From Nitrosopumilaceae archaeon (GTDB lineage Archaea; Thermoproteota; Nitrososphaeria; Nitrososphaerales; Nitrosopumilaceae): 64,000 nucleotides of DNA. A program made the position numbers and the translations under genes. Below the pieces are notes generated by a model. It was not told the origin of the DNA, did no database searches, and worked only from the letters and a program-made list of their open reading frames with translations. Of this stretch, positions 31,453 to 60,758 are shown piece after piece. Location: the NCBI GenBank assembly GCA_965208905.1, contig OZ242365.1:2150776-2214775 (forward strand), read 5' to 3'. Each line of letters opens with the position of its first letter. Within the stretch, counting starts at the first letter, position 1.

Positions 31453-31488
31453 GCGTAGTTCATATATTAAACTATGTGAAAGGTTCAG

Positions 31489-32926
31489 GGGACTTATCCC
31501 TGTAACTGTAACCTAAAAACAGCCAGACTTGTAAACCCATCTCATGAGTTAGGTTTTTAAAGTACTATAGTGTATAGAACGGTATATATAGATCACATAG
31601 TGTCCGCATAGACCTGACACGCCCTCAGGCGCGTCACATATCCAAAATACGGAACTCACAGCGGTTCGTGTATAATTGGGCCGTAGAGAAGTTGCTGGTC
31701 GACCCCACACTCACCGCATACGATCTCCAAAGTGAGTTTACCAAACTTCGCAGATGTACACCGCACCTACAGGAAGTGGAGCGCATATACCAAAATACGG
31801 CCATCCAGCAGGCCCGCACTGCTGCGGATGTCTCAAACAAATACGGCAACGGCAAACTAGGTTTCCGCTCCAGAAAGCGCGACAATACAAAGGCAGTATC
31901 ATGTGATGTACAGCCACGATTTGTGGACAACAAGCATGCGTCATTGCCGGGCCTTGGTGTTGTTGAGTTGCCTGAGGAGCAGCCATACCAATTTCCACAC
32001 AACTGGCTGTATGGCTCAAGGTCTTTCCGTTTGGTATGTGTAACACCAAAGTCGTGGATACATTATACGCCAGGTGACCACATATACAGGCTGCACATAA
32101 CATATGACGTACCTACACCCGAACGGGGCGCCAAGACTGGTGTTGTTGCCGGCATAGATAGGGGGATAACAAATCCAACGGTTGTCTGTAAGACAGACCA
32201 CAACACTTCGTGTATAATATCGTATGACACGGCAACCGCATTCCGCACGAACCGTACATGGAATGATGATGCGCGTCGTACCATATCACACCGCAACAAG
32301 CATTCCCGTACAACATACAAGATGAAACGTAAGCGAGAAAAGTACAATCGTGGTAATGCGAATGACCGCGAGTATGCGGAGTGGCTTCTAGTCAAGAAGA
32401 TATGCGAGGGCGTGGATGTGATATATGTCGAGCAGCTCCACCTTGAGGCCATGAGCAGGCGCGGTGGCAGGCACAAAAGGGGCATGAATCGTGGCATGAG
32501 GCTCATTCGGCATTATGCAATACTGCGAAAGATACGCATTATCGCAGAGCGGTTGGGCATCCGTGTAGTAGAAGTGAATCCAAAACGCACGAGTCAGGAG
32601 TGCAGTGTGTGCGGCTACACAAACAAGGAGAATCGAAATGGGGAGATGTTCAAGTGTATGGGATGTGGGCATGTAGCAAACGCCGACGGCAATGCGTCGG
32701 TGAATATAATTCAACGGGGGACCGGTATGAAGGTTCCCACGGGGGAAGGAATAGCTCTCGAAAGGCGTGAAATGGGCCGGACCCGGAAGCCACCTGTTTG
32801 TGCAGTTCCGGACGCCAGACGGCGGCGTGAGAATCAAGCGTGCAATCGACCCAAAACATCAAGCGTCATGAAGCATCTGGGAATGTACGCGTATGTTACG
32901 TATGTTCAGTAAGGTGGATAATTCCC
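31489..32926 (+). mobile_element. Non-autonomous tnpB element with TIRs and 8-bp TSD
   Basis: Ends GGGACTTATCC and GGATAATTCCC (10/11 inverted match). AGGTTCAG is duplicated at 31481-31488 and 32927-32934. Confidence 0.8.
31668..32912 (+). CDS. tnpB: TnpB-family nuclease (frame open from ~31578; true start may be near 31584)
   Basis: RFVYNWA, RuvC motifs GIDRG / YVEQL / NADGNA, and CSVC..CMGC zinc ribbon. Confidence 0.92.
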   Translation: MYNWAVEKLLVDPTLTAYDLQSEFTKLRRCTPHLQEVERIYQNTAIQQARTAADVSNKYGNGKLGFRSRKRDNTKAVSCDVQPRFVDNKHASLPGLGVVELPEEQPYQFPHNWLYGSRSFRLVCVTPKSWIHYTPGDHIYRLHITYDVPTPERGAKTGVVAGIDRGITNPTVVCKTDHNTSCIISYDTATAFRTNRTWNDDARRTISHRNKHSRTTYKMKRKREKYNRGNANDREYAEWLLVKKICEGVDVIYVEQLHLEAMSRRGGRHKRGMNRGMRLIRHYAILRKIRIIAERLGIRVVEVNPKRTSQECSVCGYTNKENRNGEMFKCMGCGHVANADGNASVNIIQRGTGMKVPTGEGIALERREMGRTRKPPVCAVPDARRRRENQACNRPKTSSVMKHLGMYAYVTYVQ

Positions 32927-33130
32927 AGGTTCAGAGATTTCATAGTCCTGAATTCAGTTCGCTATTTAAGACATAGGCTTGGCAAGCGATACGTATGGAA
33001 TAGAGGAAAATGTTACAGTATCATAACAAACCTTGATCCAGTCAAAGATACATCATGCGGCAAATGGAGCTTGGAAGAAGCACCAAGAAAATCCCAGTGG
33101 CGATGGGCACCTCTCACTTTAAGGCTGAGT

Positions 33131-33898
33131 TCATACATGACAAGAATCGTAACTACTCAAAACTTTATGCCTGCTCATATATCTATACGATACAACTGCA
33201 ACACCACACGCCGCCATGACTAGCATGGCTGCACCAAACTCGGGTATGACATGTGTGCCCAGCACGGTCACTGTACCGCCTGGATGCTCAAACTGTATCA
33301 CACGTGTTGTATCATTACTCACCTCTTGATGAGTCAATACAATATCCTGCTGATACACCACAAAGGGCCTATCTTTATCTTCATCTTTAGAATCTAATAT
33401 ATCTCGGGGTATAGACACTACGACCTGTCCCCCTCCGCGTATCTCCATGGTACTGTTGTGTTTGTCCAAGTATAGTTCTGTCACATTCTCCGTATGTATA
33501 CAATATACACCATCATTACCTGCATCTAGATATGTTCCATGACAGTCAATCTCTCCTATGCCTATATGGATGGCATACGGTGTAGTATCAGTACCTGCGC
33601 GCGCAGTAACCGTATATACGCCATCATGCCTCCAGTATGGCCCAGATATGTGCAAGTCTACAGAGAAGACACCATTCTCTGCCTCGGTCTGATCTACGGC
33701 GGCTATATTCCCAGCAGGATTCAATACTAGAACGGTGACCGGCTCCATATGGGTCGTATGGCCCCATATAGTTACTACAGACTGGCGGTCATGGTAAAAA
33801 CCATCAGTCCATATCATTACCCCCTCGGGGATATCCTCGGGAGTCTGGGCCGATGCAGGTATTATAGCAATCAGTAAGATTAAGCAGTACTTTAACAT
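33131..33898 (-). CDS. PEFG-CTERM sorting-domain surface protein
   Basis: Signal peptide and C-terminal GTHVIPEFG followed by a TM helix. Confidence 0.88.
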   Translation of the reverse strand: MLKYCLILLIAIIPASAQTPEDIPEGVMIWTDGFYHDRQSVVTIWGHTTHMEPVTVLVLNPAGNIAAVDQTEAENGVFSVDLHISGPYWRHDGVYTVTARAGTDTTPYAIHIGIGEIDCHGTYLDAGNDGVYCIHTENVTELYLDKHNSTMEIRGGGQVVVSIPRDILDSKDEDKDRPFVVYQQDIVLTHQEVSNDTTRVIQFEHPGGTVTVLGTHVIPEFGAAMLVMAACGVAVVSYRYMSRHKVLSSYDSCHV

Positions 33899-40535: not shown

Positions 40536-41399
40536 TTATACTTGCCTATATTTGACTAAATTGTAAAAGTATGATGCATTGGTTTGAATGGCTCCTTTTT
40601 TGGGGATCTTTGCCAAACCTAGCGCCTTAGAGTCCAATGCTGCCTGTACTGCGCCTCCCGCAAAGCATAGCGCCCAGAGAGCATCCTTCTCTTTTAGCAT
40701 TGTGCATAAAAAAGAGCCGCACAGTATGGCGCCCAAACCTGTAGTGTCATATATCTTCTTGTTGGGCAGCTCTATTGTGTATAACATGGTCTTGTCTAAC
40801 ATTACAATGTCTTTACCATTGGTGCGGATTACAGTTCTGGCACCCATCTTTTGTAGTCTTTTCATACCTTCTATCTCGTTGTCATCTCCAGTTATAGCCT
40901 GTATCTCGGCGGGATTTACTTTTAATGCGTCAACATCAGTCATGTCTAGTGTGGCAGGAGATGTATGTATCATGTTGTCTTCACCTGTAGTGCGCAACAA
41001 CCCTTGTGGATTATACAGTATGTAGCCATCTTGATTTTTTATTATATCTGGTGTTATCTCATGATATATGGGTGATATTATAATCCCGTCTCTGCTGTCG
41101 TTTTGTACCTGTATATCTTCACATTGATTTTGCAGGTACATCTTTCGTTTTAAGCCATCTATCACTATCTTGAATCTGGTGGTCGGTAATGCTGATGATG
41201 ACGCATCATGTTTAATGTTGGCATTTTGTAGATATTTTTTTGGAAAATCATCTCCAAATTTTGTCTGTATGCTAACATTGGACTTGAACTCTCTGGCCAT
41301 GAGTCCAGAGTAACACGCATCTCCGCCCGCCTGCTCATATGTAGAGTCTCCTATGTGTAATCTGTCCATTGCACAATGGGATATTACACTAACGTTCAT
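40536..41399 (-). CDS. PfkB-family carbohydrate kinase
   Basis: Motifs GG.ACY, LKVN..E and DTTGLGA. Confidence 0.8.
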   Translation of the reverse strand: MNVSVISHCAMDRLHIGDSTYEQAGGDACYSGLMAREFKSNVSIQTKFGDDFPKKYLQNANIKHDASSSALPTTRFKIVIDGLKRKMYLQNQCEDIQVQNDSRDGIIISPIYHEITPDIIKNQDGYILYNPQGLLRTTGEDNMIHTSPATLDMTDVDALKVNPAEIQAITGDDNEIEGMKRLQKMGARTVIRTNGKDIVMLDKTMLYTIELPNKKIYDTTGLGAILCGSFLCTMLKEKDALWALCFAGGAVQAALDSKALGLAKIPKKGAIQTNASYFYNLVKYRQV

Positions 41400-41508
41400 T
41401 TCCGGCCGATTCTTCGTTTATACTGGAGCATTTATCGCACAGTATTTTGCCACACACTATGGATACCTCTACATTTGATGTAAGGCAGCCATGACATAGT
41501 CCTCTCAT
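41389..41508 (-). CDS. Small zinc-finger protein
   Basis: MRGLCHGC...LCDKC, overlapping the PfkB start. Confidence 0.55.
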   Translation of the reverse strand: MRGLCHGCLTSNVEVSIVCGKILCDKCSSINEESAGNER

Positions 41509-42822
41509 GGAGTGTTGTGGTACGGGTTTGATTAATAGTCTTTTGTTGATTCCAGTATGTGGGGCTCTTTGTATCTGATGCGTATCCCCCTGAGTAGTAT
41601 TGATATTATACATAGTTGTACTAATACCAACTTGTATATATCTTGTATTATGTATAGTGTCGTAAAAATACTATTGGAATCTCCCAACTCGTGACCATGG
41701 CATGCCCATATAATTCTCTATTAATTGATTTATTGGGGTTGGTGTGCGGTCAGTCCTGCATGAATCATCCTTGAGGAAGGAGCTTGACACACAAATGCAT
41801 GATGCAATACGGCAGTATACATGAAAGATTTGAGATGATGCAGACCACAGGTATTATAAACTAGATTGCGATGCCGAATTCAGACATATGGAGGCGTATA
41901 TAATAAACTGACTTATTAATAAAATAAAAAATTAATTTTAATCTAATATCATACCAAGTCACAGGATGCAAACTTGAAGTGTTTAAATACAAAGATCATA
42001 CCAGAAACAAAATTAGAAAACATAACTATCTAAAAAAACCTATACTCATAGAAAGCCATTAACAAAATATACAATAAAAATCAAATTTTTAAAAAGGAAG
42101 ATTGTACAGATTATCAAATATGCTATACATCATATGGTCGAGTTCTACAAACTATTCAGCAAACATTCGGGCTGTATTATTTCCTCACATATTTGGTGAG
42201 GCACAAGTACTGAGGATTAAAATTACATATTTCAAATAAACGAATTACAACTTACACACTGCAGAATCGAATTTATGATCTTTGAACTATTACTGGAACG
42301 CATAAACAATCTAGATTTATCACATTCAGACTGAATAAGAATTAGGGTCAGAGTGGTAAGGGTTACCGTTATGTACAGAATCTATACAAAACATCATACC
42401 GCAATGCAGGAATCAAAACTCCGGCGTTCATCAAACGGTAGAGGTGGTCTACATCCAAAGTCTGGCGAACCGCCCATAGACAGTATAAAATACAACGAGT
42501 ACCTAAACTAAAAATTGACAACATAATTTTACTTACTAGCTATCTTTTGTAAGAAACACTTATGCATTTTGATTAATGTGGTAAGGTTTGTGTCTGCTAT
42601 TTTATCTGTGTATAATATGATCAAATTCATGTTTAATATTTAAAAAACATTAAAGAATGTTATAGTCCAATCCGCCGCAATTAGAAACATTGCAATATTC
42701 AGAAAATAGATCAAAATAAACATTATTTATAATCAAGGCACCTTAATATTCAGAAAGATGGTCAAACGACAAGTAATCAAAGTAAAATTTCATATAATAT
42801 TTGTACTGCATCATATAATATA

Positions 42823-43020: not shown

Positions 43021-43023
43021 ATT

Positions 43024-45678: not shown

Positions 45679-45679
45679 C

Positions 45680-46765: not shown

Positions 46766-46766
46766 G

Positions 46767-47048: not shown

Positions 47049-47049
47049 C

Positions 47050-49206: not shown

Positions 49207-49496
49207 TGACTCTGCCCCTGCGCAACATAATACACGATAAGATTGTAGATGCCGGCTCACTGACCGACGAAGACCTATCAAAATCACTCTCCAAGGATGG
49301 GCATAATATCTCTACGGATATGCTAAACAAGATATTGTTGGGCCTAGAGATAGGTGGCATAATCAATGTCACGTGGTTTACAAAGGATATACGCAAAATC
49401 GAGGTTGCTGAGCTGGAAGAGGATGAGACCGACATTGAAGATAAAAAGATGCGTGAGAGAGAGTATGAGGCCAGCTTTCCTGGAGCTGATCACTGA
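49206..49496 (+). CDS. Conserved small winged-helix-like protein
   Basis: Coupled to cdc48. LNKILLGLEIGGII pattern. Confidence 0.75.
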   Translation: MTLPLRNIIHDKIVDAGSLTDEDLSKSLSKDGHNISTDMLNKILLGLEIGGIINVTWFTKDIRKIEVAELEEDETDIEDKKMREREYEASFPGADH

Positions 49497-49587
49497 TGTT
49501 ATCTAACTGGTAATAAATTTTCGATTTAACATGTTAGCACCATATAGATGGGCATCCTCTGACTATATGTCTAAAACAACAGTATCT

Positions 49588-50172
49588 TTACAGGTCGCCC
49601 AAGGAGCGTGAGTGCTTGGCCGTATGAGGCCTCTCACCTGAGTATCTGCGGCGCATGTGCCCTGATGGCCTGCCGTCCAGCAACTCCAAAAACCATGCCT
49701 CGTGCTCTATCTCTTCTGCTAGTATACTGGATGCTATCTCATATGTGGTGGGATCCTTGCCATGAGTCATCTTACAAACAATATCCCAGTTTACAATGGC
49801 GCCCTGTTCGGCCTTGAGACACTTTTCAAGTATTTGACGGAGTGTGGTCTTCTTTGTGGACTGTAGAAAGTCTGCTCCTGCCAACTTGCAAAACTCTGTA
49901 ACATCGGTGGGGAACTCGCCTCCCAACTGATATATTCGGTCTATACAAGATTCAAAGTGGCTCAGGTCCTCTAGTCTGGCATCCTCAATTACGCCCTTTA
50001 TGCCCTCACCTTCCATACCTGTACAGAATGCTCGCAAATTTGTAAAGTAATAGTATGCAACAAATTCCACAGATGCATTATACACCAAAGTCTCTAAGAG
50101 TTTATCCACATCTACGCCGTTCTTTTTTAGTACCTCTACGCCTACTACTTTGTGTTTCTTTGCAGCTGCCAA
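49588..50172 (-). CDS. DPS-like (ferritin-like) protein
   Basis: Motifs EFVAYYY, EDARLEDLSHFE and EEIEHEAWF...GH. Confidence 0.9.
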   Translation of the reverse strand: MAAAKKHKVVGVEVLKKNGVDVDKLLETLVYNASVEFVAYYYFTNLRAFCTGMEGEGIKGVIEDARLEDLSHFESCIDRIYQLGGEFPTDVTEFCKLAGADFLQSTKKTTLRQILEKCLKAEQGAIVNWDIVCKMTHGKDPTTYEIASSILAEEIEHEAWFLELLDGRPSGHMRRRYSGERPHTAKHSRSLGDL

Positions 50173-50244
50173 TCATCCTTCATGGCATGTTTTATTATAT
50201 TAATATTGTCAGAATACGTTTCTTGAAGGCTATATGTACACCTG

Positions 50245-51859
50245 GGTTCCTCCCGCAAAGTTGGGTGACGTTACACCACCACGCGGGATAGTCTGTCAGC
50301 CCAGTTGCTACAGCAACCCTGTATGAGTGGTGTGGGATCGAGGATTACATCCACGCCACGACGGACTTCGCCCAGACTGGCCGAAACCTGACGACCATAT
50401 CGGGATACGGCACTTGTTCGCCGTATATTCTCCACTGCGTTGACGTCGCGATCTACGCCAACTATATGGCAGCGGGTGCAGTCTTTTTTATGATAAGTCC
50501 CAGTTAGTATGGTTCTACATACAGCACATAGCTTGGATGTGTTGTGTGGACGCATATGTAATGCATCCACTCCCAAAAACCGGGATTTTTCATAAATTAA
50601 ATTTGATGCCTTTCGCATCATGGCAGAGTATAGCCTGCGACGCAAGCTGCGTCCAAACCTTCCACCCCTCTGCCAATTGTACGATATGTGGGTTAAATCC
50701 TCTAACATCACCAAACACCCGGACTGTGCGGCCCACTGTGCAATGCATAGTGCTATCACGTTCAGCACATGTTCGTGGTGGCGCATGGCTTTGGTTACCC
50801 TGCGCTTTTTAGCATTCTTCCTTGACTTTGTATGGTTATGCTGTATGCTCAATATGCATCGGCTCATCTGCCTCTTTATCTCGGCGGCCCTCTTGTGTTT
50901 ACCCTCCCTCTTGAGTTTCCTGTATCTGCGTCTGAGTTTGTTGTGTAACTTGCGACCACCATGTGTGACTTGTTGCTTTTCTCTGCGCGCCTCCTCTTTC
51001 TTATGTGTAATACGCCTTCCGGTACGTGCCGCATATGCGATATTATCATGTGTACGGGTATACGTATTGTTTGCATCCTCAGTCTTTGCCTCCTCAATGG
51101 CCTGTATTGTATCGGATAGATCAAATTGTACCATTGCATTCCTGTCTCCCACGGTGATGTTCTTTTCATTAATATCCACGCCAATTACATCCTTTGGTGT
51201 GCCGCCAACATGCCCCACATCCGTAAGTAATTCGATGATCTCTGACTTGCCGTGTGGGTGGGGCTTGTCAACCTCGGGCACGTTGTTGTAATATGTAATG
51301 GTGTATGTGGTTGGCGTGATCCACAACTCGCCCAACTCATTTTGTCCTATTTTACGTACCACATCTAAAGAGACGGGAATTGCTATCATGTGTCGGTGTT
51401 TTGATGAGCCAACATTTGCAATAGCCATATATCCGCCCGCTATCGGATTCAGCCTCCAATTTTGGTTTTTCAACTTTACAACCGGATTACAGAATACGGG
51501 CTCAGACACCTTCGTGCCCTGTACAGTCTTTGTATTGTACGTTTTATGGGCGGCAACCCCGTCCCGTATGGCGGTCTGCGTTATGGACGAATGTACTTTG
51601 GGGTCAGGGCCGCGCATCGTATGGTATATCAATGCGTTAACACCATAGGTATCCTTCCCCGTGTTATCTGCTATAATGTACGCCACTTCTGCCACCTTTC
51701 TGACATGTTCAAACACATGCCGCATGCCCAAATTTTTTGTGTATGGACGTGTTGCTGCCCTGCTATTTTTTACAAGAGCCATCATATAGTACGGTTTAAT
51801 GACGTATTTAACGCTATTCAACAACACATCAACCATCACCCGACTTTGCGGTAGGAACC
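50245..51859 (-). mobile_element. Non-autonomous tnpB element with 24-bp TIRs and 8-bp TSD
   Basis: TIRs GGTTCCTCCCGCAAAGTTGGGTGA and GGTTCCTACCGCAAAGTCGGGTGA (22/24). TACACCTG is duplicated at 50237-50244 and 51860-51867. Confidence 0.93.
50271..51785 (-). CDS. tnpB: TnpB-family nuclease (~504 aa, long basic insertion)
   Basis: RuvC motifs GVDIN / MLEDL / DRDVNA and CAVC..CTRC. The start was moved inside the TIR. Confidence 0.85.
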   Translation of the reverse strand: MMALVKNSRAATRPYTKNLGMRHVFEHVRKVAEVAYIIADNTGKDTYGVNALIYHTMRGPDPKVHSSITQTAIRDGVAAHKTYNTKTVQGTKVSEPVFCNPVVKLKNQNWRLNPIAGGYMAIANVGSSKHRHMIAIPVSLDVVRKIGQNELGELWITPTTYTITYYNNVPEVDKPHPHGKSEIIELLTDVGHVGGTPKDVIGVDINEKNITVGDRNAMVQFDLSDTIQAIEEAKTEDANNTYTRTHDNIAYAARTGRRITHKKEEARREKQQVTHGGRKLHNKLRRRYRKLKREGKHKRAAEIKRQMSRCILSIQHNHTKSRKNAKKRRVTKAMRHHEHVLNVIALCIAQWAAQSGCLVMLEDLTHISYNWQRGGRFGRSLRRRLYSAMMRKASNLIYEKSRFLGVDALHMRPHNTSKLCAVCRTILTGTYHKKDCTRCHIVGVDRDVNAVENIRRTSAVSRYGRQVSASLGEVRRGVDVILDPTPLIQGCCSNWADRLSRVVV

Positions 51860-51902
51860 TACACCTGTAACACTTTTTACAACATTGCAAGCTCTATACA
51901 TC

Positions 51903-52520
51903 ATGGTATTGCCTTCGGACCTTGAAGACCCGACACCTCCTCCCACTCTGCAGGACTTTAAAAGACAGTCTATTGAATTTATACAGGATATATCAAACGG
52001 CTACAAAGAGTGGGTGGACTACTACAATCTGCCGCCTGAAGAGGATGCCAAACGCCGTGCTGAGATTGATGATGTGGTGTCTCGTACATGCCAATGGATT
52101 ACACAGGTACCACAGAATCGTAGCGGACTATCTGTAATAACCGACGATGGTGTTCAAAAGATGGCCGAAGCTACAGCGGGTTGGCCCTTTCAGATAGGTG
52201 TCTTTGTAAATAATACATCCAGATACGTTTCAGTCACAGATGCACCTGTAAATATTCGGCTACGGGCGGTTGGCCAAAACGGACGAAGGGTGAAACTAGG
52301 ACGTCACTATCAAAGTCGTCTTCGTATTGATGCTACCTGCAAAGCCAGCATACCGGACGTTCCTGATGTTACATATGACTCGATGGATATAACACTCCAA
52401 CTACACGTAGAGAGTTGCGCACCCGGAGACTTGGTATCGTTTACACCAATATTTGTCGAGATGGAAGAAGATAGAGAGTTTAGCAGTCGCGGTAAGACGA
52501 CTCTGGTCTACTTTAAGTGA
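51903..52520 (+). CDS. Hypothetical protein
   Basis: ~205-aa ORF with no recognised motif. Confidence 0.6.
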   Translation: MVLPSDLEDPTPPPTLQDFKRQSIEFIQDISNGYKEWVDYYNLPPEEDAKRRAEIDDVVSRTCQWITQVPQNRSGLSVITDDGVQKMAEATAGWPFQIGVFVNNTSRYVSVTDAPVNIRLRAVGQNGRRVKLGRHYQSRLRIDATCKASIPDVPDVTYDSMDITLQLHVESCAPGDLVSFTPIFVEMEEDREFSSRGKTTLVYFK

Positions 52521-52524
52521 TGTC

Positions 52525-52839
52525 TCATATGGGAGTTACTTTGATGGCTACGCGCCGCTCCTCTGCGCGCAGCTCATTTGGATACTTTATACTGGATATC
52601 AGACTTATCAATGATGTGTCGTGTATCCGCTCTGCCGTACCATGTATTGTCTTGTTATGATCAAAATATATAACAACCTCTGGATTATACAGTGCATTTA
52701 AAAACCAGTCTGAATCCGGTCTATGCCGTGTAAAATAATACTCTCCATTATACAAGACGGCAGTTATCTTTACTGTGTGCGTCTGGCCAGTCTTTCTGCC
52801 GATGGTCTGCAGTCGTACTCGTATGGGTGGATTTGCCAT
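52525..52839 (-). CDS. Deazaflavin (F420)-dependent oxidoreductase/nitroreductase-like protein
   Basis: L.TIGRKTGQ...DWFLNA..NPEV. Confidence 0.8.
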   Translation of the reverse strand: MANPPIRVRLQTIGRKTGQTHTVKITAVLYNGEYYFTRHRPDSDWFLNALYNPEVVIYFDHNKTIHGTAERIHDTSLISLISSIKYPNELRAEERRVAIKVTPI

Positions 52840-52859
52840 ATACTAAATTAAATACAGGA

Positions 52860-53534
52860 CTAATTTGAGTGCTGTACAGATACCGTCTTTCGCCAGCGGT
52901 ATAGTAAGGCTGGTGGCAGTACTCCTAGTAATGGTGCCGTCATGTATAACCAGATGTCATTCATTATACCAGTAGTGATGGCAGGCGCCAGAGACCTGAT
53001 GGGGTTCATGGAGGCGCCAGATATGGGCCCAAAGAACCAGACATCAAAGGCTACCACACTTCCCACCACGAGTCCGGCCACCACTCCATGTACTTTGGTA
53101 CTCACTATACACAGTATGCCGCCCATCAAGAGTATGGTGGCCAGCACCTCTATGCTAAAGAAGGTCACCAAGTCCAAAGAGTAGTCCGGCCGATTCAGTC
53201 CCAAATCTGCATGATATCCCAATGTATACATAACAAAGACACTACCCAGTATACTTCCAATACCTTGAGCCACTAGGTATGTTGGCACATCGGACCATTT
53301 GGCATGGCGTGTTATGGCAAAACCTATGGTGACGGCCGGGTTGAAGTGAGCCATCGAGTACTTGCCAAATACAGACACCAGTATCCACAAGCCCAACAGG
53401 TGCATCAAGGCAATAAACTCCAAACCCAGAGTCTGTGAATTAAACCCATCATATACAATAGAGCCGGTGGCGGCAACCAAGAGCCCAAAGGTTCCCACAA
53501 GCTCGGCTACAAATATACGAATGTTAAATTTCAT
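52860..53534 (-). CDS. MIP/aquaporin channel (probably arsenite-related)
   Basis: AHFNPAVT and GASMNPIRS, coupled to arsC. Confidence 0.9.
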   Translation of the reverse strand: MKFNIRIFVAELVGTFGLLVAATGSIVYDGFNSQTLGLEFIALMHLLGLWILVSVFGKYSMAHFNPAVTIGFAITRHAKWSDVPTYLVAQGIGSILGSVFVMYTLGYHADLGLNRPDYSLDLVTFFSIEVLATILLMGGILCIVSTKVHGVVAGLVVGSVVAFDVWFFGPISGASMNPIRSLAPAITTGIMNDIWLYMTAPLLGVLPPALLYRWRKTVSVQHSN

Positions 53535-53917
53535 TACAGACTCGTTACCATATCCTTTACCTTACTCTCTATCATGTCCCGGATTTTGCGTACATCCTCT
53601 ATGTCTTTGCCCTTGGGGTCGGGTATGCCCCAATCTGATACTCTTTCAACAAATAGGGCTGGACACGACTCTGAGTCCATACAACCCATGTTTATAACAT
53701 CTTCAGATTTGTCTATCATTTTGGTGGTGAGCATCTGGGGCTTTTGCGCAGAAATGTCTATACCGACCTCGCGCATGGCCTCGACCACCACACTATTGGG
53801 CTTGGTCGCCGGCTGTGTCCCTGCACTGGATACACGTTCATGAGGAGCATATTTTTTAAGAAATGCCTCGGCCATTAGACTTCGACCTGCATTCTCCACG
53901 CACACGAAGAGTACCAT
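53534..53917 (-). CDS. arsC: Arsenate reductase (LMW-PTP family)
   Basis: CVENAGRS, MGC....CP and DP motifs. Confidence 0.9.
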   Translation of the reverse strand: MVLFVCVENAGRSLMAEAFLKKYAPHERVSSAGTQPATKPNSVVVEAMREVGIDISAQKPQMLTTKMIDKSEDVINMGCMDSESCPALFVERVSDWGIPDPKGKDIEDVRKIRDMIESKVKDMVTSL

Positions 53918-53929
53918 TGTATAATTTAC

Positions 53930-53965
53930 ATATCAACAGTAGTTTATATAAATCATCATTTATAT
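53930..53965. promoter_or_regulatory. Putative ArsR operator(s) in the divergent promoter
   Basis: ATATAAAT-catc-ATTTATAT (53946-53965) and an overlapping imperfect copy ATATCAAC-agta-GTTTATAT. Confidence 0.6.
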
Positions 53966-53971
53966 GACAAG

Positions 53972-54292
53972 ATGTCTATACCTACGTATAACATGGATGG
54001 TCTTAGACTGCTGCGATGTATATGTGATGAGATGCGATTTGGCATACTTGAACAACTAAGCCAGGGTGAGATGACTGTGGGTCAGATTGTACAGAAGATA
54101 AAAAGAGATCAACCATTGGTCTCACACCATCTAAAGACGCTAAAGGAGTGTGGGATTGTATCATCTGAGAGCCGTGGACGTCATGTCGTGTATCGTATAT
54201 CCAGTGAACGTCTCTCTGCCTTGATTGTGCAGATACAGGAAGCTGGCGATGAGATAAACGATATCTGTGATAGTACGTGTTGCGCAAAATAA
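53972..54292 (+). CDS. arsR: ArsR/SmtB transcriptional regulator
   Basis: VSHHLKTLKECGIV and a C-terminal CC pair. Confidence 0.9.
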   Translation: MSIPTYNMDGLRLLRCICDEMRFGILEQLSQGEMTVGQIVQKIKRDQPLVSHHLKTLKECGIVSSESRGRHVVYRISSERLSALIVQIQEAGDEINDICDSTCCAK

Positions 54293-54340
54293 ATTAGTGT
54301 AGTCGCTGTTATATGTTGCGATATTTACAGTAGTTACAAG

Positions 54341-54970
54341 TTGGAGGCCTATCTTGAAGTCATACTGAATCTGGCAGGGTTCTTGGTAGGTTTGGTTATT
54401 GGTATAATGTCGCTGATAGGGTTCAGAAATACGGCCAGCCCAACACTACTTCGATTGTCACTGGCGTTCTTCTCAATCAGTCTGGGGTTTATGATAGTCT
54501 GGATTGGATACATGGTGGAACTACTCCCTTCTAAACCCGGCCAGGCAGGTTGGTGGCTGGAGACGCTGGGAGTGGGTGTGCAAACACTGGGGTACTTCTT
54601 TATTGCATTTTCGCACGGCATAAAGACATTCTTTCCCAAATCTAGATACTTTCGGGCAGTTGGCGTATTTCCGCTGTTTTTAATCTCTTCTGTACAACTA
54701 GGCCACATATTGAGGTCCATCTCGTTTGTACTACTGGTGTATGGAGCAATTGAGACCATACTGTCATATTTGGAGAGCAGAAACCGTGGGGCCATATCCG
54801 TGGCCGTGGGCCTCTCTCTGCTGGCCTTGGGGGAGTTTCTCAGTTGGTACTCGATGGTCTTTCCGGGTACAATGGTCTATGCTGTATCGCTGATGATAAA
54901 GATAGGAGGCCTCGTATTCTTATTCATACCTGTAAGCCGCATACCATTTCAACGAATTCGGCTTGAATAG
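54341..54970 (+). CDS. Multi-pass membrane protein
   Basis: About 6-7 hydrophobic segments. Confidence 0.75.
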   Translation: MEAYLEVILNLAGFLVGLVIGIMSLIGFRNTASPTLLRLSLAFFSISLGFMIVWIGYMVELLPSKPGQAGWWLETLGVGVQTLGYFFIAFSHGIKTFFPKSRYFRAVGVFPLFLISSVQLGHILRSISFVLLVYGAIETILSYLESRNRGAISVAVGLSLLALGEFLSWYSMVFPGTMVYAVSLMIKIGGLVFLFIPVSRIPFQRIRLE

Positions 54971-55275
54971 CTTTTACAGTTGGGCAATAATGCATCTATG
55001 AGGTATATATCGGCTCAACTAATTATATAGTACCAAATATGACTTCCATCCAAACCTCAATTTTACCCTCCACAATTACGCTCAAAATCATACGCATTTA
55101 CGGCTAGACTTTGCCACCAAAACTGTCCTTATATGGATATACGTACCGACCATCAATTGTACAATTTGGATAATCTAACTTTCAGTGGGGTACAGTATTT
55201 GTCAAGTTTTTTAATACTATTGGTGAAATTATGATGACATTGCAGCATATTTAGTGACCTACATATGTAATAACG

Positions 55276-55545
55276 ATGGCTGGGTACAAGAGCAAAGTAC
55301 AGATTATAGGCGACATGCTTACATGTGCTGGCGATGGCGCCTCAGTATCGGATATGATCCAACAGTCAAGTACATCGTATAATAGGATATCCTCAATTCT
55401 GGGAATACTGATATCTCAGGGTTTGATGGAGCAGTGTGCTAGGCGTGATGGCCGTAAATACCAGACAAGTAGCAAGGGTCAGAACTTTTTACAAGAGTAT
55501 AAAGCATTTCAAAGATTTTCTGAGAACTATGGCATGACGATATAG
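55276..55545 (+). CDS. Archaeal winged-helix transcriptional regulator
   Basis: YKSKVQII..ML...KYQTSSKG. Confidence 0.8.
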   Translation: MAGYKSKVQIIGDMLTCAGDGASVSDMIQQSSTSYNRISSILGILISQGLMEQCARRDGRKYQTSSKGQNFLQEYKAFQRFSENYGMTI

Positions 55546-55549
55546 CCGA

Positions 55550-55795
55550 TTACTCTTTTTTATTATTGCATTGGGGGCACCCGTCTTTGGTGACGGCACT
55601 TCCACATTCGGCGCAGAACCCTAGTCCAGCCTCAAGCATTATGCTGCGTTTACGCCACACACTGAACCACTTGATTCCAAAAAAGACAGCTGCTGCTGTT
55701 ATCATTGCAAATACTGGCGTAGTAAATGGTATCATGCCTATGGCCAACATGATTGCTCCTAATAGCAGTATGGTGTCACGTCTCTCAAACTTCAA
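55550..55795 (-). CDS. Small membrane protein with C-terminal Zn ribbon
   Basis: TM hairpin followed by CAEC...CPQC. Confidence 0.6.
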   Translation of the reverse strand: MKFERRDTILLLGAIMLAIGMIPFTTPVFAMITAAAVFFGIKWFSVWRKRSIMLEAGLGFCAECGSAVTKDGCPQCNNKKE

Positions 55796-56045
55796 TTATA
55801 CATCTGTGATTTATGCATAATTAAAAAGATGATGGGGGCTCGGCGTTGGTATACTCTGTCATCATTTTGTGCATCAACACTCTAACTCCTCCTCACAGCC
55901 CCCATGTGTAGTGTATTTGCACTATATTTTGATTTAGTATGTTTAGGCATGCAGACCTATCACAAAGTTGGGTGATACCACATCTATGAGATTGTCTGTT
56001 GGATTATCTGCTCCTGTAACCTTTATCATATCTTGTAATGGACAC

Positions 56046-56777
56046 TTAGTTTTGGCCACCATCCAGCAGATTATTCACCATATCCAGTACAGTCTTGTCG
56101 TGAGGATCGCGGGGATATGGTAGTGTGTTTGGTATGTCGTGTGTGATGCGACCATCCAAAGCCGAGAGTTGTATGATGCGACTCCCCAACACTACGGCCT
56201 CCAGCAGGTGGTGTGTGACGAAGAGTACTGTTTTACCTGTCTGCTTCCATATGCGGTACATCTCACCCATCAGGGTTATTCGTGTCCCATAGTCCAGAGC
56301 CGAGAAAGGCTCATCCATCAATAGTACGTCCGGATCAAGTGCTAGGGCACGAGCGATGGCAACCCTCTGCTTCATTCCCGTGGAGAGCTCGTGTAAGTAC
56401 TTTTCTCCTTCACCGTCCAGATTCATCATGTGCAGCATCTCATTAGACTTTGCTGCTCGTTTGTCGGCCGAAACGCCATGCATCTGTAGACCAAACTCTA
56501 TGTTGTTGCGCACATTCAACCATGGAAAGAGTGCCCCTTCTTGAAAGACCATAACGGCTCGACCATGGGGACCTTTGATTGGCTCATTATCTATTAGTAT
56601 GCTTCCCGCATCCGGTAACTCAAAACCAGCTATCATGCGCAAAAGCGTGGTCTTGCCACACCCCGACGGGCCGGTTATGCATATAAAGTCACCACTCTTT
56701 GCTGTGAGGTTCACCCCCCCATATAATAAAGAGCCTCCTCCCAACTGTTTCGATACGTTGCATACCTGTACATGCAT
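56046..56777 (-). CDS. ABC transporter ATPase (nitrate/sulfonate-type)
   Basis: Motifs GPSGCGKT, LSTGMKQR, LMDEPF and FVTH. Confidence 0.9.
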   Translation of the reverse strand: MHVQVCNVSKQLGGGSLLYGGVNLTAKSGDFICITGPSGCGKTTLLRMIAGFELPDAGSILIDNEPIKGPHGRAVMVFQEGALFPWLNVRNNIEFGLQMHGVSADKRAAKSNEMLHMMNLDGEGEKYLHELSTGMKQRVAIARALALDPDVLLMDEPFSALDYGTRITLMGEMYRIWKQTGKTVLFVTHHLLEAVVLGSRIIQLSALDGRITHDIPNTLPYPRDPHDKTVLDMVNNLLDGGQN

Positions 56778-56948
56778 GGAGTGGGTGCGCAACGGCGCTA
56801 TAAAAACCGAGCAAGACCTACATGATGTGACAGATCATGCAACATATGGTAGACTTGATGAATAATGTATGGTTAATTACAACCATCTGTGATGCGACTC
56901 GTAGATTCTACATAATGATATGAAAAATTGTGTATATGAAATTTGAGA

Positions 56949-58982
56949 TTATAGTATTATAATCGCCACAAAGGCGGGAACAAAGACTATGGCTACAGTG
57001 TTTAGTAGTTTTATTACAGTATTTAGTGCAGGACCGGCAGTGTCTTTGTAGGGATCCCCAATTATGTCGCCGACGACGGCCACCTTGTGTTGTTCACTAC
57101 CTTTCTCGCCGCGCATCTCTACCAATTTCTTGGCATTGTCCCACGCGCCACCGGTGTTTGCCAGATGGTACGCCAAAAATATGCCCGTGACCACCGAACC
57201 CATCAATAGGCCGGCCACCGCCGTCGGACCCAATAGTACACCTAGTATGATGGGAGACGCTATGGCAATAATTGCAGACTTCCACAGCTCACGTATGGAT
57301 GCCACAGTGGCAATATCTACACATTTGGCATAGTCGGGCTTGGTCTTGCCAGTTAAAATACCTGGACTCTCTTTGAATTGACGGCGCACCTCATCAACCA
57401 TCTTGCTTGCCGCACGCGAGACACCATTAATTAACTGACCAGTTATGATAAACGGCAACAGTCCGCCGACAATCAGGCCCACTATGACTGCTGGGTTGGT
57501 CAGCGAGTAGTCCAGACCCAATATGCCCTCAAATACATGAGCCGCCTCAAACTGAAATGCCTGTATCATGGCCAAGGCAGCTAGTGCCGCACTTGCTATG
57601 GCAAAGCCCTTTGTTACTGCCTTTGTTGTGTTACCCACTGCATCTATCTCGTCGGTAACCTTGCGGTTTGACTCCCCCATTCCTGTCATCTCCACTATTC
57701 CGCCAGCATTATCTGCTATGGGACCAAACGCATCTATACTTAGGACTATGCCTGCAAGACTTAGCATTGCCATGGCTGTTAATGAGGTTCCAAATATGCC
57801 ATACAGAACAGGGTCGGCATCAGGAGGTGCGGCTGCCGAAGATATGGCAAATGATATGATTATGGCGGCTACAAGTGCAATCATGAACGGACCAGTGGAC
57901 TGTAATCCTTTGATTATGCCCATGAGGGTCAAAGAGGCATAGCCCCAACGCGCCGACTCGGCTATCTCTATTACGGGGCCAAACTTGTAACTGGTATACC
58001 TGTCGGTTATCTTTTGAATTACGGGTACCAGAGCCACGCCTACTATCGTGGCTCCAAACAGGGCATATGCGGCCTCACCTTCCACTAGTATAGTCAAAAA
58101 TACAAAGTTTAGTGCTATGGCGATGGCTGCAGAAACATAGAATGATGTGTTTAGAGGCTTCATAACATCTGATATGTTGGTGCTTCGTACTATGATGACT
58201 CCAATTATTGATGCCAACATTCCAGAGGCGCCCACCAAAATTGGGTACATGAACAAATCCGGAGCACCTATCAGGGCGGCAATCAGGAGTGATGCCAGGA
58301 TTGTAACTATATATGATTCATAGACATCCGAGCCCATGCCCGCAGCATCACCCACATTATCTCCCACATTGTCGGCTATTGTGGCAGGATTGCGTGGATC
58401 GTCCTCTGGTATGTTGGCCTCCACCTTGCCCACCAGGTCGGCGCCCATATCTGCAGCCTTTGTAAATATACCGCCGCCTATACGTATGAAGAGTGCAATA
58501 AGGCTAGCGCCTATGCCCACACCTGCTATGGTTATGGGATCCGGAAATATCATGTATAGGCCAGCAATTGCCAGTAGCGCCATGGCTGGAATCGTCAGTC
58601 CTACAGTAGCTCCTCCCCGGAACGCCATGGCAAATGTCTTACCCAGACCCTCGCCACTCAGATTTGCTGCCCGAACAGCAGCCTTGACGGTAATCTTTAG
58701 TGATATCAGGCCTGCCACTGCTGAGAGTGCGGCCCCTACGGCAAATGCTATACCGTTGGAATAGTTAAGAAATGCCCCAATTATTACCGACAAGCCTATG
58801 GCCACAGGAATTATAATCTTCATCTCACGACGCAAAAATGCTGCAGCTCCTACACGTACAGCTTCGGATATCTCCAACATCTGTGGTGTACCTGCATCCT
58901 GACGCGAGATCCACATGGCCAAGCCTACCGCAATTAAAATAGATGCAATGCCTGCGCCTATAGGTAACATCTCCAGCATCAT
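56949..58982 (-). CDS. hppA: Membrane H+-translocating pyrophosphatase (K+-independent type)
   Basis: Motifs DMGADLVGKVE, EDDPRN, DNVGDNVGD, GNTTKA and GDPYKD. Confidence 0.96.
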   Translation of the reverse strand: MMLEMLPIGAGIASILIAVGLAMWISRQDAGTPQMLEISEAVRVGAAAFLRREMKIIIPVAIGLSVIIGAFLNYSNGIAFAVGAALSAVAGLISLKITVKAAVRAANLSGEGLGKTFAMAFRGGATVGLTIPAMALLAIAGLYMIFPDPITIAGVGIGASLIALFIRIGGGIFTKAADMGADLVGKVEANIPEDDPRNPATIADNVGDNVGDAAGMGSDVYESYIVTILASLLIAALIGAPDLFMYPILVGASGMLASIIGVIIVRSTNISDVMKPLNTSFYVSAAIAIALNFVFLTILVEGEAAYALFGATIVGVALVPVIQKITDRYTSYKFGPVIEIAESARWGYASLTLMGIIKGLQSTGPFMIALVAAIIISFAISSAAAPPDADPVLYGIFGTSLTAMAMLSLAGIVLSIDAFGPIADNAGGIVEMTGMGESNRKVTDEIDAVGNTTKAVTKGFAIASAALAALAMIQAFQFEAAHVFEGILGLDYSLTNPAVIVGLIVGGLLPFIITGQLINGVSRAASKMVDEVRRQFKESPGILTGKTKPDYAKCVDIATVASIRELWKSAIIAIASPIILGVLLGPTAVAGLLMGSVVTGIFLAYHLANTGGAWDNAKKLVEMRGEKGSEQHKVAVVGDIIGDPYKDTAGPALNTVIKLLNTVAIVFVPAFVAIIIL

Positions 58983-59037
58983 TATATATCGTGGAATCAT
59001 GAACCCGTAAATATAAACTAAGGCAACGACTCTGAAC

Positions 59038-60490
59038 TGGGCTGTGACGTTATCTACGCGCGTCGTATAACACACGCTGTACAACACAGCTGCTACACAC
59101 TTGGGCTTTCACCCAATGCAACAAATGTTGGCAAATTACCATCCAGAGGAGTTTCCAAGAGACGTTCATTGTCGGTATGGCTTTGACGCCTAACCTGGTG
59201 ACCGCCTGTACCGGCAATCACGTCATTAACACCTGGAGGAATCGTGCAAGTGCCAAGATGTATCTTTCCTCTCGAGACCATTCCAGCCTCGTTGTATAGT
59301 TCGTAAACGCCCTGAGAGCGCTTACTCCATCGTATAATACGAAAAGCGAAAAGTATGTTGAAGGCGGCATTTACATCAGCATGGCATGCCATACCGCAGT
59401 TATAACACCTAAACTTACTACCCTCACGCCATGTATTCATGCTACAGCACATGCAGCACTGCTTTGAGGTATTTTTGGGGTCTATCTCAATGTATTCTAC
59501 ATTATACCGTAGGGATTTTTGCGCAATATCATTACGCGCCTTACCACACCTACTTTGTCGTGTTATGCGGTTCTTGGTCTTCTGACCCTTGCCTTTACTC
59601 GTCATGGTACGAAGGTTCATTCCCTCCATGATGATTCTATCACATTGTTTCATTAATTTCTTGTTAAACTTGCGCATCTTGTCGGTCTGACGGTTTCCCA
59701 TCTTTTTGTATATGCTATCTAACTGGTCGTAAAGTTTGCGCCACCTGTGGGAGTGTAGTTTACACCTGCTAATCTTCTTGTGAATCCGCGCTATGTTGCG
59801 CAGTGTATCTTTCTCTCGTAGTGTGAGCATAGCAATCGTACCATCGGACTTGCCTACAACTAAAGTGTGCTTGCCCCCCATATCTATACCTGCATGTACA
59901 CCCGTACAGACGCGGGCCGGTACATGCTCCCGTATTGTGATATGTAGTTCAAACTGTCTTTCCTTATCGGCATTATTCGTAACATCTACAATCTTGTATA
60001 ATTGTGAGTCTGAGGGCAGTTTACCTTTCTGTAGTTTGAATTGAACATTGCACTTTGGGAAGTATACTGTATTACCTTTGGATTTCTTGCCCAACGGCAC
60101 ATCACTAAACAGGGGATATGTCTTGCGCCCATACCTCACATATCTGCAATTTTCCAGCTTGTATCCTTCCCGTATGGCGCCGCGAGCCCAGGTCTGGGGG
60201 ATGGTCCGAAGTTTGGCGGCTATTTTTTGGGTGTCGAACACCGACAACCCAGCACGACGAGCCTCAATACCTGCATTAAGCCATATGTGGGATTCAGAAT
60301 ACATTGAGTCAAAGTATTTCGTAAGTTTGCTTGATGTCTTTAAACGGTACTGTAAAGTTTTTATAACGTACTTTTCTCCACGATACTGCATGTATAATAC
60401 ACTACTTGGTGGTATTTAAGCGGTAGAGGTTTGTCTACTATACAGTACATCGAGTTGTCTGGGGACGCGCGCAGATAACGTCACAGCCCA
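59038..60490 (-). mobile_element. Non-autonomous tnpB element with 27-bp TIRs and 8-bp TSD
   Basis: TIRs TGGGCTGTGACGTTATCT(A/G)CGCGCGTC (26/27). CTCTGAAC is duplicated at 59030-59037 and 60491-60498. Confidence 0.95.
59093..60391 (-). CDS. tnpB: TnpB-family nuclease
   Basis: KTLQYRL N-terminus, RuvC motifs GIDMG / IMEGM / HADVNAA, and a zinc ribbon. Confidence 0.92.
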   Translation of the reverse strand: MQYRGEKYVIKTLQYRLKTSSKLTKYFDSMYSESHIWLNAGIEARRAGLSVFDTQKIAAKLRTIPQTWARGAIREGYKLENCRYVRYGRKTYPLFSDVPLGKKSKGNTVYFPKCNVQFKLQKGKLPSDSQLYKIVDVTNNADKERQFELHITIREHVPARVCTGVHAGIDMGGKHTLVVGKSDGTIAMLTLREKDTLRNIARIHKKISRCKLHSHRWRKLYDQLDSIYKKMGNRQTDKMRKFNKKLMKQCDRIIMEGMNLRTMTSKGKGQKTKNRITRQSRCGKARNDIAQKSLRYNVEYIEIDPKNTSKQCCMCCSMNTWREGSKFRCYNCGMACHADVNAAFNILFAFRIIRWSKRSQGVYELYNEAGMVSRGKIHLGTCTIPPGVNDVIAGTGGHQVRRQSHTDNERLLETPLDGNLPTFVALGESPSV

Positions 60491-60758
60491 CTCTGAACCC
60501 CTACGGGAGTCAGACATCCCTCTCATCATAAGAGATGGTGACTGTCCACATTATTTGGAGACATATGTTGGTAGAACGTACCCGAAATATGATTGAGTGA
60601 ATACTCTAGTGATGAAACAAAAGAACTATGCGAAACAGTGACAGGCTGCTCAACATATTGCCCGTCATCAGCTCCGGAGGATGCTACAAAGGTTAGACTA
60701 TCGCCTGAGTCAATGAATGAGTGCCAGTCAGGCATCACGTCCTGTATACAAGATACAT

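Follow-up and report, generated by a model that had tools for sequence, protein, structure and literature searches.

Insertion sequences of the IS200/IS605 and IS607 families use Y1 or serine transposases, lack terminal inverted repeats (TIRs) and make no target-site duplications (TSDs) (PMC4810608, PMC13565253). The presence of TnpB, an RNA-guided nuclease, in transposons of the DDE type was first reported, as a rare layout, by Altae-Tran et al. 2023 (PNAS, PMC10691335), who, according to the available text of that article, distinguished six DDE-associated TnpB branches (DDE-1 to DDE-6) with inverted terminal repeats, together with solo TnpBs that have the same ends. The only DDE family named in that text is IS630, and in the available part of its supplement IS1595 and IS6 appear only among the listed transposase models; a review from 2026 (PMC13565253) names ISL2, IS630 and IS1031. 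In Fanzor, the TAM (the recognition motif of the nuclease) includes the fixed 5' TSD, and the scaffold includes the 3' TSD; homing by TnpB has been argued to be of little benefit to TSD-making transposons of the cut-and-paste or copy-in type (PMC13565253).

Here we describe a window of 64,000 nucleotides from the genome (99.6% complete, single contig) of a sponge-associated archaeon of the Nitrosopumilaceae, in which three tnpB genes, in the elements referred to below as E1, E2 and E3, are each enclosed by TIRs and TSDs. We consider it probable that these elements are non-autonomous transposons of the DDE type, whose sole cargo is a working TnpB module composed of a nuclease gene and a 3' guide-RNA scaffold. 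The suggestion that TnpB in DDE shells might be novel as such did not survive comparison with the available text of Altae-Tran et al. 2023 (PMC10691335), by which it was preceded. However, that text was not found to discuss where the TAM lies with respect to a TSD of variable sequence, and a literature search turned up no paper that connects IS6 with TnpB, so that IS6-like shells and the TAM-TSD geometry outlined below were not found in print.

The 1438-bp element E1 (31489..32926, forward strand; subfamily A1, IS1595-type ends) is bounded by TIRs at 31489-31499 and 32916-32926 (GGGACTTATCC and GGGAATTATCC, 10 matches in 11 positions) and flanked by identical 8-mers, AGGTTCAG, at 31481..31488 and 32927..32934, the latter of which would supply the first 8 nt of the guide. 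Its tnpB open frame (31578..32912, forward strand, 444 codons) matches the guided_TnpB model (NF040570; 2.8e-32, 112.5 bits against a cut-off of 100), and an alignment to Cas12f1 spans its motifs GIDRG, YVEQL and NADGNASVNI. An ATA codon at 31584-31586 stands where two of three A1 siblings and all three A2 copies have the expected ATG, and the first GTG is at 31668; full-length protein may therefore not be made from this particular copy. The 1615-bp element E2 (50245..51859, reverse strand; family B, ends GGTTCC...GCAAAG) has 24-nt TIRs at 50245-50268 and 51836-51859 (22/24 matching) and a TSD, TACACCTG, at 50237..50244 on the 3' side of tnpB, where the guide would start, and at 51860..51867 on the 5' side. 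Its tnpB (50271..51785, reverse strand, ~504 aa; TNB domain, 1.7e-6; motifs GVDINE, VMLEDL and DRDVNAVENI) is a weak match, which passes the threshold of PF07282 (28.5 versus 26.3 bits) and misses that of the NCBIfam guided_TnpB model; it represents a divergent clade with 32 full-length relatives, almost exclusively in records labelled Cenarchaeum. The 1453-bp element E3 (59038..60490, reverse strand; family D1, IS6-like ends) has 27-nt TIRs at 59038-59064 and 60464-60490 (26/27) and the TSD CTCTGAAC at 59030..59037, on the 3' side of tnpB, and at 60491..60498, on the 5' side, while its tnpB (59093..60391, reverse strand, 432 aa) matches guided_TnpB at 8.9e-32 (110.8 bits against the same cut-off of 100) and shows the motifs GIDMGG, IIMEGM and HADVNAAFNI. 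A fourth tnpB element, of subfamily A3 (genome positions 2149851-2151310; 28-nt TIR GGGAATTACATACAAAAGTACACAGCCT, TSD TATTAAAT matching at 8/8), is cut by the window start, and its 3' part occupies positions 1..535 (forward strand).

The TIRs and exact 8-bp TSDs around all three elements, as originally noted, can be read directly from the sequence. E1, E2 and E3 contain one long ORF apiece, which matches TnpB models, and no other cargo; all three products exhibit the RuvC D-E-D motifs, within which we take the acidic residues to be the catalytic ones, and have kept the zinc-finger cysteines. Genome-wide, about 75 TnpB loci were identified (PF07282 matches), with 45 full-length copies of tnpB elements in nine subfamilies; the TnpBs fall into eight or more clades of at most 35% mutual identity, all of them in TIR shells of three types, an unusually broad occurrence of this layout. 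The absence of tnpA, claimed for the three elements, extends to the whole genome, in which neither a Y1 transposase (0 matches to PF01797) nor a serine recombinase (0 matches to PF00239) was found. Nesting of mobile elements is frequent in this genome: an IS6-like element lies within a tnpB gene at 2095.8 kb, and a rve-type transposase lies within a copy of family C.

Among the 45 full-length copies, the flanking 8-mers are identical in 29, match at 7/8 positions in 6 and agree less well in 10, and the matching ones all differ from one another; as sibling copies elsewhere in the genome have different 8-mers, the TIR/TSD repeats are not due to chance. All four full A1 copies have their own exact 8-bp TSD, of the 12 full-length copies of family B, 8 are flanked by exact TSDs and the other 4 by 8-mers that differ from each other, and a second copy of the E3 type (genome positions 250605-252075) has a TSD of 7/8. 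The family A TIR start recurs, together with a TSD of at least 7/8, at 16 of the 20 loci of this family in four congeneric species. Reconstructed empty sites were contiguous in a sister species, with a single 8-mer, in 28 of the 45 cases; these include the site of E3, at which one CTATGAGC corresponds to two copies of CTCTGAAC in the window, but not those of E1 and E2, which are not clean empty sites in that species. The elements are multi-copy, and their insertion at sites still unoccupied in the sister species is recent.

Transposases of the IS1595, IS6-like and IS630-like kinds are encoded elsewhere in the same genome, in elements whose ends are of the same classes as those of the tnpB elements. 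Four intact IS1595 transposase genes (DDE_Tnp_IS1595) were found, all outside the tnpB elements, and transposase-bearing IS1595 elements have TIRs starting with GGGAATTATA and 8-bp TSDs in 3/3 cases; one of them (1770047-1772736) is identical to the A2 and A3 TIRs over the first 13 nt and has 9 nt in common with the right TIR of E1. An IS6-like element (18695-22054) has a perfect 50-nt TIR and an 8/8 TSD, and another IS6-like transposon (1337692-1341293) is identical to the TnpB element D6 in 38 of 40 terminal bases. The end of E3 resembles in part (GGGCTGT..GTTA) that of a transposase-bearing IS6-like element at 1130912. In the case of E2, no transposase-bearing element with its exact TIR was found in the genome, and only GGTTC is shared with the IS6-like ends, although its end fits what we take to be the classic consensus of IS6 ends. 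There are also 25 matches of the IS630 type, and the E/I tnpB elements are flanked by TA. The prediction of IS1595 and IS6 partners with the same ends is thus borne out for the IS1595 TIR starts and for D6, in part for E3, but not for E2. The three TIR types are dissimilar in sequence, as had been proposed, yet E2 and E3 both look IS6-like; and at least three captures of TnpB by DDE ends are plausible in view of the three shell types and the eight or more clades.

A guide RNA that begins with the TSD would require the TAM to be immediately 5' of the left TSD, and this is where a motif was found that is absent at the mirror position: TTA in the family of E2 (51868..51870 in the window, reverse strand, a candidate TAM directly adjoining the left TSD in tnpB orientation), TTG in the sister family and ACAN-TA in the IS630-type elements. 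These motifs were picked out by eye before they were tested statistically, whereupon TA at -2/-1 was counted at 11/12 left ends versus 1/12 mirror positions in family B (Fisher p = 1.1e-4), and T at -2 followed by A or G at -1 at 18/20 versus 2/20 in families B and C together (p = 5e-7); in intact E/I copies, ACA precedes TA by three bases in 5/5 cases versus 0/5 at the mirror position. No motif was seen beside the left TSD in the A1 and A2 subfamilies, including E1, and G at -1 in subfamilies A2-A5 was counted in 13/18 cases in this genome and 6/16 in other species. At the opposite end of the element, a structured RNA, the candidate omegaRNA scaffold, is predicted at 32740..32914 (forward strand), overlapping the 3' end of the E1 tnpB and the right TIR (RNAalifold -54.9 kcal/mol, 47 pairs); covariation in the E1 clade is modest, with five pairs changed on both sides, compared to 2.1 +/- 1.0 in shuffled alignments, none of 500 of which reached five. 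Conservation across 16 relatives of E1 stops at 32926, the last base of the right TIR. A search of Rfam gave no match, and the only RNA libraries containing the locus provide contigs, which give neither ends nor strand. The sharp end of conservation, the structure that includes the TIR and the motif are all in keeping with the prediction that the guide starts with the TSD and that the TIR forms the 3' end of the omegaRNA; RNA guidance and homing are inferences.

Other explanations of the shells differ greatly in credibility. That these are canonical IS200/IS605 or IS607 elements of the IS1341 type, with repeats that are coincidental or merely the usual end hairpins, is practically out of the question: tnpB-only elements of this type are common in archaea, to go by the available text of PMC3119063, but 29 exact 8-bp TSDs of differing sequence speak against such an identity, as does a genome devoid of Y1 and serine recombinases, and the 28 empty sites with a single 8-mer refute it. 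It is only a little less implausible that ordinary IS200/IS605-type elements became nested in MITEs by chance, in which case the TIRs and TSDs would say nothing about the upkeep of tnpB. Nested elements are indeed common in this genome; however, in E1, E2 and E3 the distance between the end of the tnpB frame and the right end of the element is 14 to 55 bp, and the family A frame extends into the TIR, which leaves no room for ends of the IS605 type. Moreover, entire units have moved together to dozens of sites, and the TnpB clades, at least eight, all reside in such shells in a genome with no Y1 match. The possibility that the TnpBs are exapted, nuclease-dead or regulatory (TldR-like) derivatives, which happen to sit in mobile shells, also seems quite improbable; many inactivated and exapted TnpBs are reported in the available text of Altae-Tran 2023 (PMC10691335), but in E1, E2 and E3 the D-E-D motifs and the zinc-finger cysteines are present, and the genes, far from being fixed at a single locus, are mobile and present in multiple copies.

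A stronger competitor, albeit an unlikely one, accepts the DDE-mobilised cassettes and attributes the motif to target choice by the transposase or transpososome, with TnpB acting at other targets or being carried as baggage. The same motif is found on the same side of four tnpB-less miniature elements (MITEs) and one composite with the same ends, which fits the proposed guide geometry but would also follow from a preference of the transposase, and the lack of a motif in A1 and A2 points in the same direction. On the other hand, the family B TIRs are nearly identical over 24 nt, so that a two-fold symmetric transpososome would have little basis for a one-sided preference, and three unrelated shell types show different motifs at the same place relative to tnpB. 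T-rich 5' motifs are, besides, what TnpB and Cas12 use. The baggage version is at odds with the median dN/dS of tnpB, 0.14-0.29 in four families, which shows that purifying selection acts on the gene.

Returning to the non-autonomous DDE-type transposons with a working TnpB module, we propose that the IS1595, IS6-like and IS630-like transposases would mobilise the tnpB cassettes in trans, and that transcription across the right TIR would yield an omegaRNA with a scaffold that terminates in the TIR and a guide composed of the right TSD copy and the downstream flank. An unoccupied allele, comprising the TAM, the 8-mer and the flank, would match the guide completely, while the occupied allele would match over 8 nt only, before the left TIR begins, and would be spared. 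TnpB could thus cut empty alleles, either on sister chromosome copies or in revertants that lost the element when its TSDs recombined, and the element would be restored by recombinational repair of the cut allele. An insertion would benefit only if a TAM lay exactly 8 bp upstream of it, and this restriction would account for the motif being confined to one side. Movement by copy-in, as attributed to IS6 elements, leaves no empty donor site, and for these elements the benefit would have to come from other empty alleles. More tentatively, and with slightly less than even confidence, we suggest that this archaeal lineage moved TnpB modules from Y1 or serine transposons into shells of three DDE families and re-wired homing for a variable 8-bp TSD, with the TAM 5' of the TSD, the TSD providing those 8 nt of the target that lie nearest the TAM, and the left TIR interrupting the match at the occupied site; TTA, TTG and ACAN-TA could then be the footprint of a drive that acts after insertion and by which only insertions next to a TAM are retained.

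The genome thus bears on the question of whether homing by TnpB can serve TSD-making cut-and-paste or copy-in transposons, as it combines several nuclease clades with a large number of recent, independent insertions whose empty sites are known. The geometry (TAM, then 8-bp TSD, then flank) is concrete and testable, and the candidate nucleases are compact, with very short putative TAMs (TTA, TTG). If the motif is the footprint of a drive, it would provide population-genetic evidence that TnpB shapes the survival of DDE insertions.

Compared to known systems, the elements described here resemble the DDE-associated TnpBs, in which, according to the available text of PMC10691335, tnpB lies between inverted terminal repeats with its 3' end near the transposon end and solo copies are presumably moved in trans; the tnpB elements of this genome likewise have inverted terminal repeats and occur as solo copies whose ends are those of elements that carry a transposase, and the IS1595 or IS6 shells may belong to the six branches distinguished there. 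Family A shares with the IS1595 family the TIR start (GGGAATTAT...) and the 8-bp TSD, but has tnpB as cargo and no DDE_Tnp_IS1595 transposase inside. The 8-bp TSD and the GG-initial TIRs, with ends shared at 38/40 positions in the case of D6, are reminiscent of IS6/IS26, from which the tnpB elements differ in having no internal transposase; the IS6-like elements of this genome represent an archaeal form, which carries cargo and has an N-terminal zinc-finger extension. With IS200/IS605 (IS1341-type) and IS607 they have in common the nuclease family and, presumably, the guide from the right flank and the TAM on the left side, but unlike them they possess TIRs and TSDs, and the 8-bp TSD intervenes between the TAM-like motif and the left end. 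Like Fanzor in eukaryotic TIR transposons, they are DDE transposons that are flanked by TSDs and carry a TnpB homologue; however, Fanzor is found in eukaryotes or their viruses, whereas this host is an archaeon with relatives labelled Cenarchaeum, and the 8-bp TSD varies, unlike that of Fanzor, and would have to be guide or target; only the TA-flanked E/I family looks similar to Fanzor.

Direct reading of the sequence bears out the original prediction of three elements in the window in which a tnpB gene is enclosed by terminal inverted repeats (TIRs) and 8-bp target-site duplications (TSDs). E1 (31489-32926, plus strand) has 11-nt TIRs matching at 10/11 positions and carries AGGTTCAG on each flank, E2 (50245-51859, minus strand) has 24-nt TIRs (22/24 matching) between two copies of TACACCTG, and E3 (59038-60490, minus strand) is bounded by 27-nt TIRs (26/27 matching) with CTCTGAAC on each flank. 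Every element contains one long ORF, and the RuvC-I, -II and -III motifs, which had been described as intact in the three genes, are found in all of them together with the zinc-finger cysteines. The ORFs of E1 and E3 score above the cut-off of the NCBI guided_TnpB model; for the E2 ORF, the Pfam TNB domain is the only model passed. Positions 31584-31586 in the window copy of E1 read ATA, where ATG is present in two of the three siblings of the same subfamily (A1) and in all three A2 copies; with ATA in place of the start codon this copy may be defective, though it has already transposed. A repeat of ~160 bp located immediately to the right of E1 (32942-33100), with further copies in the genome and in the sister species, looks like a small MITE, and a 34-nt segment at 44299-44332 that matches E1 close to its right end (positions 1379-1412, 94%) is probably what remains of a family A element.

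The genome is a single contig of 2,214,775 bp, the window included, and BLAST searches within it returned four full copies of E1, a further three in which the TIR differs, and 12 full-length copies of E2; E3 is present twice and has about ten relatives at greater distance. In 45 full-length copies from nine reference subfamilies, the flanking 8-mers vary between copies, and the two flanks agree exactly in 29 cases, at 7/8 positions in 6 and more poorly in 10. The sibling copies with different 8-bp TSDs were therefore found, and the TIR/TSD architecture is not a product of chance and extends across the genome. The reported lack of tnpA in E1-E3, whose single ORF is tnpB, extends to the entire genome, where a Pfam scan gave ~75 matches to the TnpB TNB domain and none to Y1 transposases or serine recombinases. 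According to an automatic scan corrected by eye, TIRs surround nearly all TnpB families of the genome; for D3, D5, D7, F, E and G the scan took internal or partial repeats, and the ends were reassigned by eye. The ends GGGAATTAT... are common to family A, which comprises three deep TnpB clades, while families B (including E2) and C end in GGTTCC...GCAA, family D (including E3) exhibits several GG(A/G)(A/G)CTGT... end variants, and family E/I has ends GAGTTTATGCGTAAT with TA flanking both sides. Identity between the TnpB clades is at most 35%. A solitary exact E-family end motif, GAGTTTATGCGTAAT, is present at window positions 2193-2207. Two identical A5/F elements (genome 1455264-1456902 and 2049469-2051107) are arranged so that the 8-mer on the left flank of one is that on the right flank of the other, and this match across the copies suggests recombination between them, i.e. 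an inversion or translocation.

In the closest species of the collection (G005, main contig compared), which is ~97% identical in the flanking DNA, 28 of the 45 insertion sites lead from the left flank through a single 8-mer straight into the right flank; two of these sites, both corresponding to copies with unequal 8-mers, have a junction gap of 12 or 17 bp. The E3 site reads ...GGCAACGA CTATGAGC CCCTACAGG... in G005, with one 8-mer vs two in the window. The expected empty sites with a single TSD thus exist for E3 and many other copies; no clean site was found in G005 for the window copies of E1, whose right flank is 11 kb away, and E2, at whose site 158 bp of other DNA are present. The sister species G005 harbors one full-length copy of all nine subfamilies in total, and the copy number of these families is therefore far higher in the present genome. 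Of 20 family A loci in four further species of the genus, 16 share the start of the TIR and have TSDs that agree at 7/8 positions or better; wider sampling for relatives of E3 returned one locus. Among 61 sampled Nitrosopumilaceae genomes, TnpB exceeds the Pfam cut-off in 9 and Y1 is found in 3, and no other genome approaches the TnpB count of this one.

Because their ends are common to tnpB elements and transposase-bearing elements, we infer that transposases of the IS1595, IS6-like and IS630 types move the tnpB cassettes in trans. Transposase-bearing IS1595 or IS6 elements with the same ends as tnpB elements had been anticipated, and they were identified for some families. Four intact IS1595 genes are encoded in the genome, three of them resolved to elements with GGGAATTATA... 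TIRs and exact 8-bp TSDs, and in one IS1595 element the first 13 TIR bases are those of subfamilies A2 and A3. The IS6-like transposase, with an N-terminal zinc-finger extension, is encoded by thirteen genes, and its elements are 3.4-3.6 kb long, with ~50-nt TIRs and cargo genes inside (in the one at genome 18695-22054, the 50-nt TIR is perfect and the TSD matches at 8/8). The TnpB element D6 has 38/40 terminal bases in common with the IS6-like transposon at 1337692-1341293, and the end of E3 is similar to that of the IS6-like element at 1130912. No transposase-bearing element with the exact ends of E2 was found in the genome, the IS6-like ends sharing only GGTTC. The IS630-type transposase gave 25 matches, in TA-flanked elements, which would suit the TA-flanked E/I tnpB family as movers. 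One intact IS630-type element lies in the window (4006-5121; 342-aa DDE_3 transposase, TIR TAGTT(A/G)GG.GCATAAATAA, TA flanks) and is one of a set of at least 10 near-identical copies in the genome. Three further observations concern the transposases: an IS1595 element at genome 1770047-1772736 (39-nt TIRs, TSD CAATTTTA, transposase gene at 1770084-1771043) carries DNA methyltransferase-like genes as cargo; a weak IS6-type match with two stop codons at window 26035-26235 is probably a decayed IS6-like remnant; and an IS6-like element at genome 2094889-2097160 lies within a family D tnpB, truncating the gene, with GIDMGG just past the IS end.

The median dN/dS of paralogous copies is 0.24 in family B, 0.21 in A3, 0.29 in C and 0.14 in D, and the TnpB protein is therefore under selection. 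An alignment of the E1 clade (16 sequences, five species) exhibits a mean column identity of 81% that breaks off after the final base of the TIR; the 25 nt beyond it are unrelated between the sequences. The RNA predicted for it by RNAalifold comprises 47 pairs (-54.9 kcal/mol), with TIR bases in the last helix, and five pairs are changed on both sides, vs 2.1 +/- 1.0 in shuffles (0/500 reach 5) and 0-3 in slid controls. This provides modest support for a putative omegaRNA scaffold ending in the TIR, in a region that is also protein-coding. Rfam gave no match across the window at gathering thresholds. In the interval 41000-60900, metatranscriptome contigs (sponge and marine, devoid of strand, ends and levels) cover the 3' part of the E2-family tnpB, and one of them continues beyond the element end into other DNA. 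Sponge RNA contigs from two libraries of one study link 50323 to 51664, which corresponds to an E2-family form with a 1340-bp internal deletion.

With the copies oriented by tnpB, the bases immediately 5' of the left TSD were compared with the mirror position on the right side; motifs were spotted by inspection first and Fisher tests were made afterwards. In family B, TA occupies positions -2/-1 in 11/12 copies (12/12 with one copy shifted by one base) and in 1/12 at the mirror (p = 1.1e-4), T is found at -3 in 8/12, and the TSD begins with C in 9/12. In family C, TT at -3/-2 is found in 8/8 copies on the left and 1/8 at the mirror (p = 0.0014 for TT), with G at -1 in 6/8 on the left and TTG at the mirror in 0/8. 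Taken together, B and C have T at -2 with A or G at -1 in 18/20 copies on the left and 2/20 at the mirror (p = 5e-7). In A2-A5, G is found at -1 in 13/18 vs 3/18 (p = 0.002), and intact E/I copies have ACA three bases ahead of TA in 5/5 vs 0/5. The left-side motif is also seen in four MITEs (miniature copies that lack tnpB) and in one composite, all bounded by ends of the B or C type. The generality of the motif is weakened by the A1/A2 copies, which have no left-side motif, and by family A in other species, where G at -1 is weak (6/16). At genome 924780-927837, 8 bp separate a family C tnpB element from a decayed element of 1.5 kb with B-type ends; the pair has TTAAACTC on both outer sides, as if the two had moved together as a 3058-bp composite.

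Should transcription of the guide, as for IS605 TnpB, proceed from the DNA beyond the right end, the guide would start with the right copy of the TSD. An empty allele, consisting of motif, 8-mer and flank, would then present a full guide match beside a 5' motif rich in T, such as TnpB and Cas12 use, and in the occupied allele the match would extend for just 8 nt before the left TIR. TnpB would cut the empty alleles, and repair would use the occupied copy. The main rival explanation is that the one-sided motif reflects an unusual preference of the transposase; however, a symmetric transpososome would hardly yield a motif on one side, above all in family B, where the two TIRs are nearly the same. 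For this reason we favour TnpB-mediated cutting of empty alleles followed by repair from an occupied copy.

The observation of tnpB elements with TIRs and TSDs is confirmed, and its interpretation as tnpB carried between DDE-mobilised ends stands for the most part, with DDE-type shells, shared ends and empty sites; it does not stand as a novelty, since tnpB in DDE-type transposon shells is a kind known since 2023. Papers on IS605, IS607 and ISC describe TnpB elements without TIRs and TSDs (PMC3119063, PMC4810608, PMC13565253). Altae-Tran et al. 2023 (PMC10691335) report six branches of TnpB associated with DDE transposases, with inverted terminal repeats in every branch, as well as solo TnpBs carrying the same ends. 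A 2026 review (PMC13565253) lists ISL2, IS630 and IS1031 for DDE-associated TnpB. In our literature search, no paper dealt with TnpB in IS6-like or IS1595 shells, nor with a TAM (the TnpB recognition motif) located 5' of a variable TSD, points on which the additional files of the 2023 paper may bear. What is new is the scale, with ~75 TnpB loci, three shell types and no Y1 or serine transposase in one genome, as well as the IS6-like shells around tnpB, the many dated empty sites of tnpB elements, and a TAM-TSD-guide geometry open to test. In Fanzor, as outlined in the same review (PMC13565253), a fixed 5' TSD is part of the TAM and the 3' TSD is part of the scaffold; these roles cannot apply to the elements described here, because their 8-mer varies. 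The nearest demonstrated behaviour is that in the IS200/605 plasmid gene-drive work (PMC11870625).
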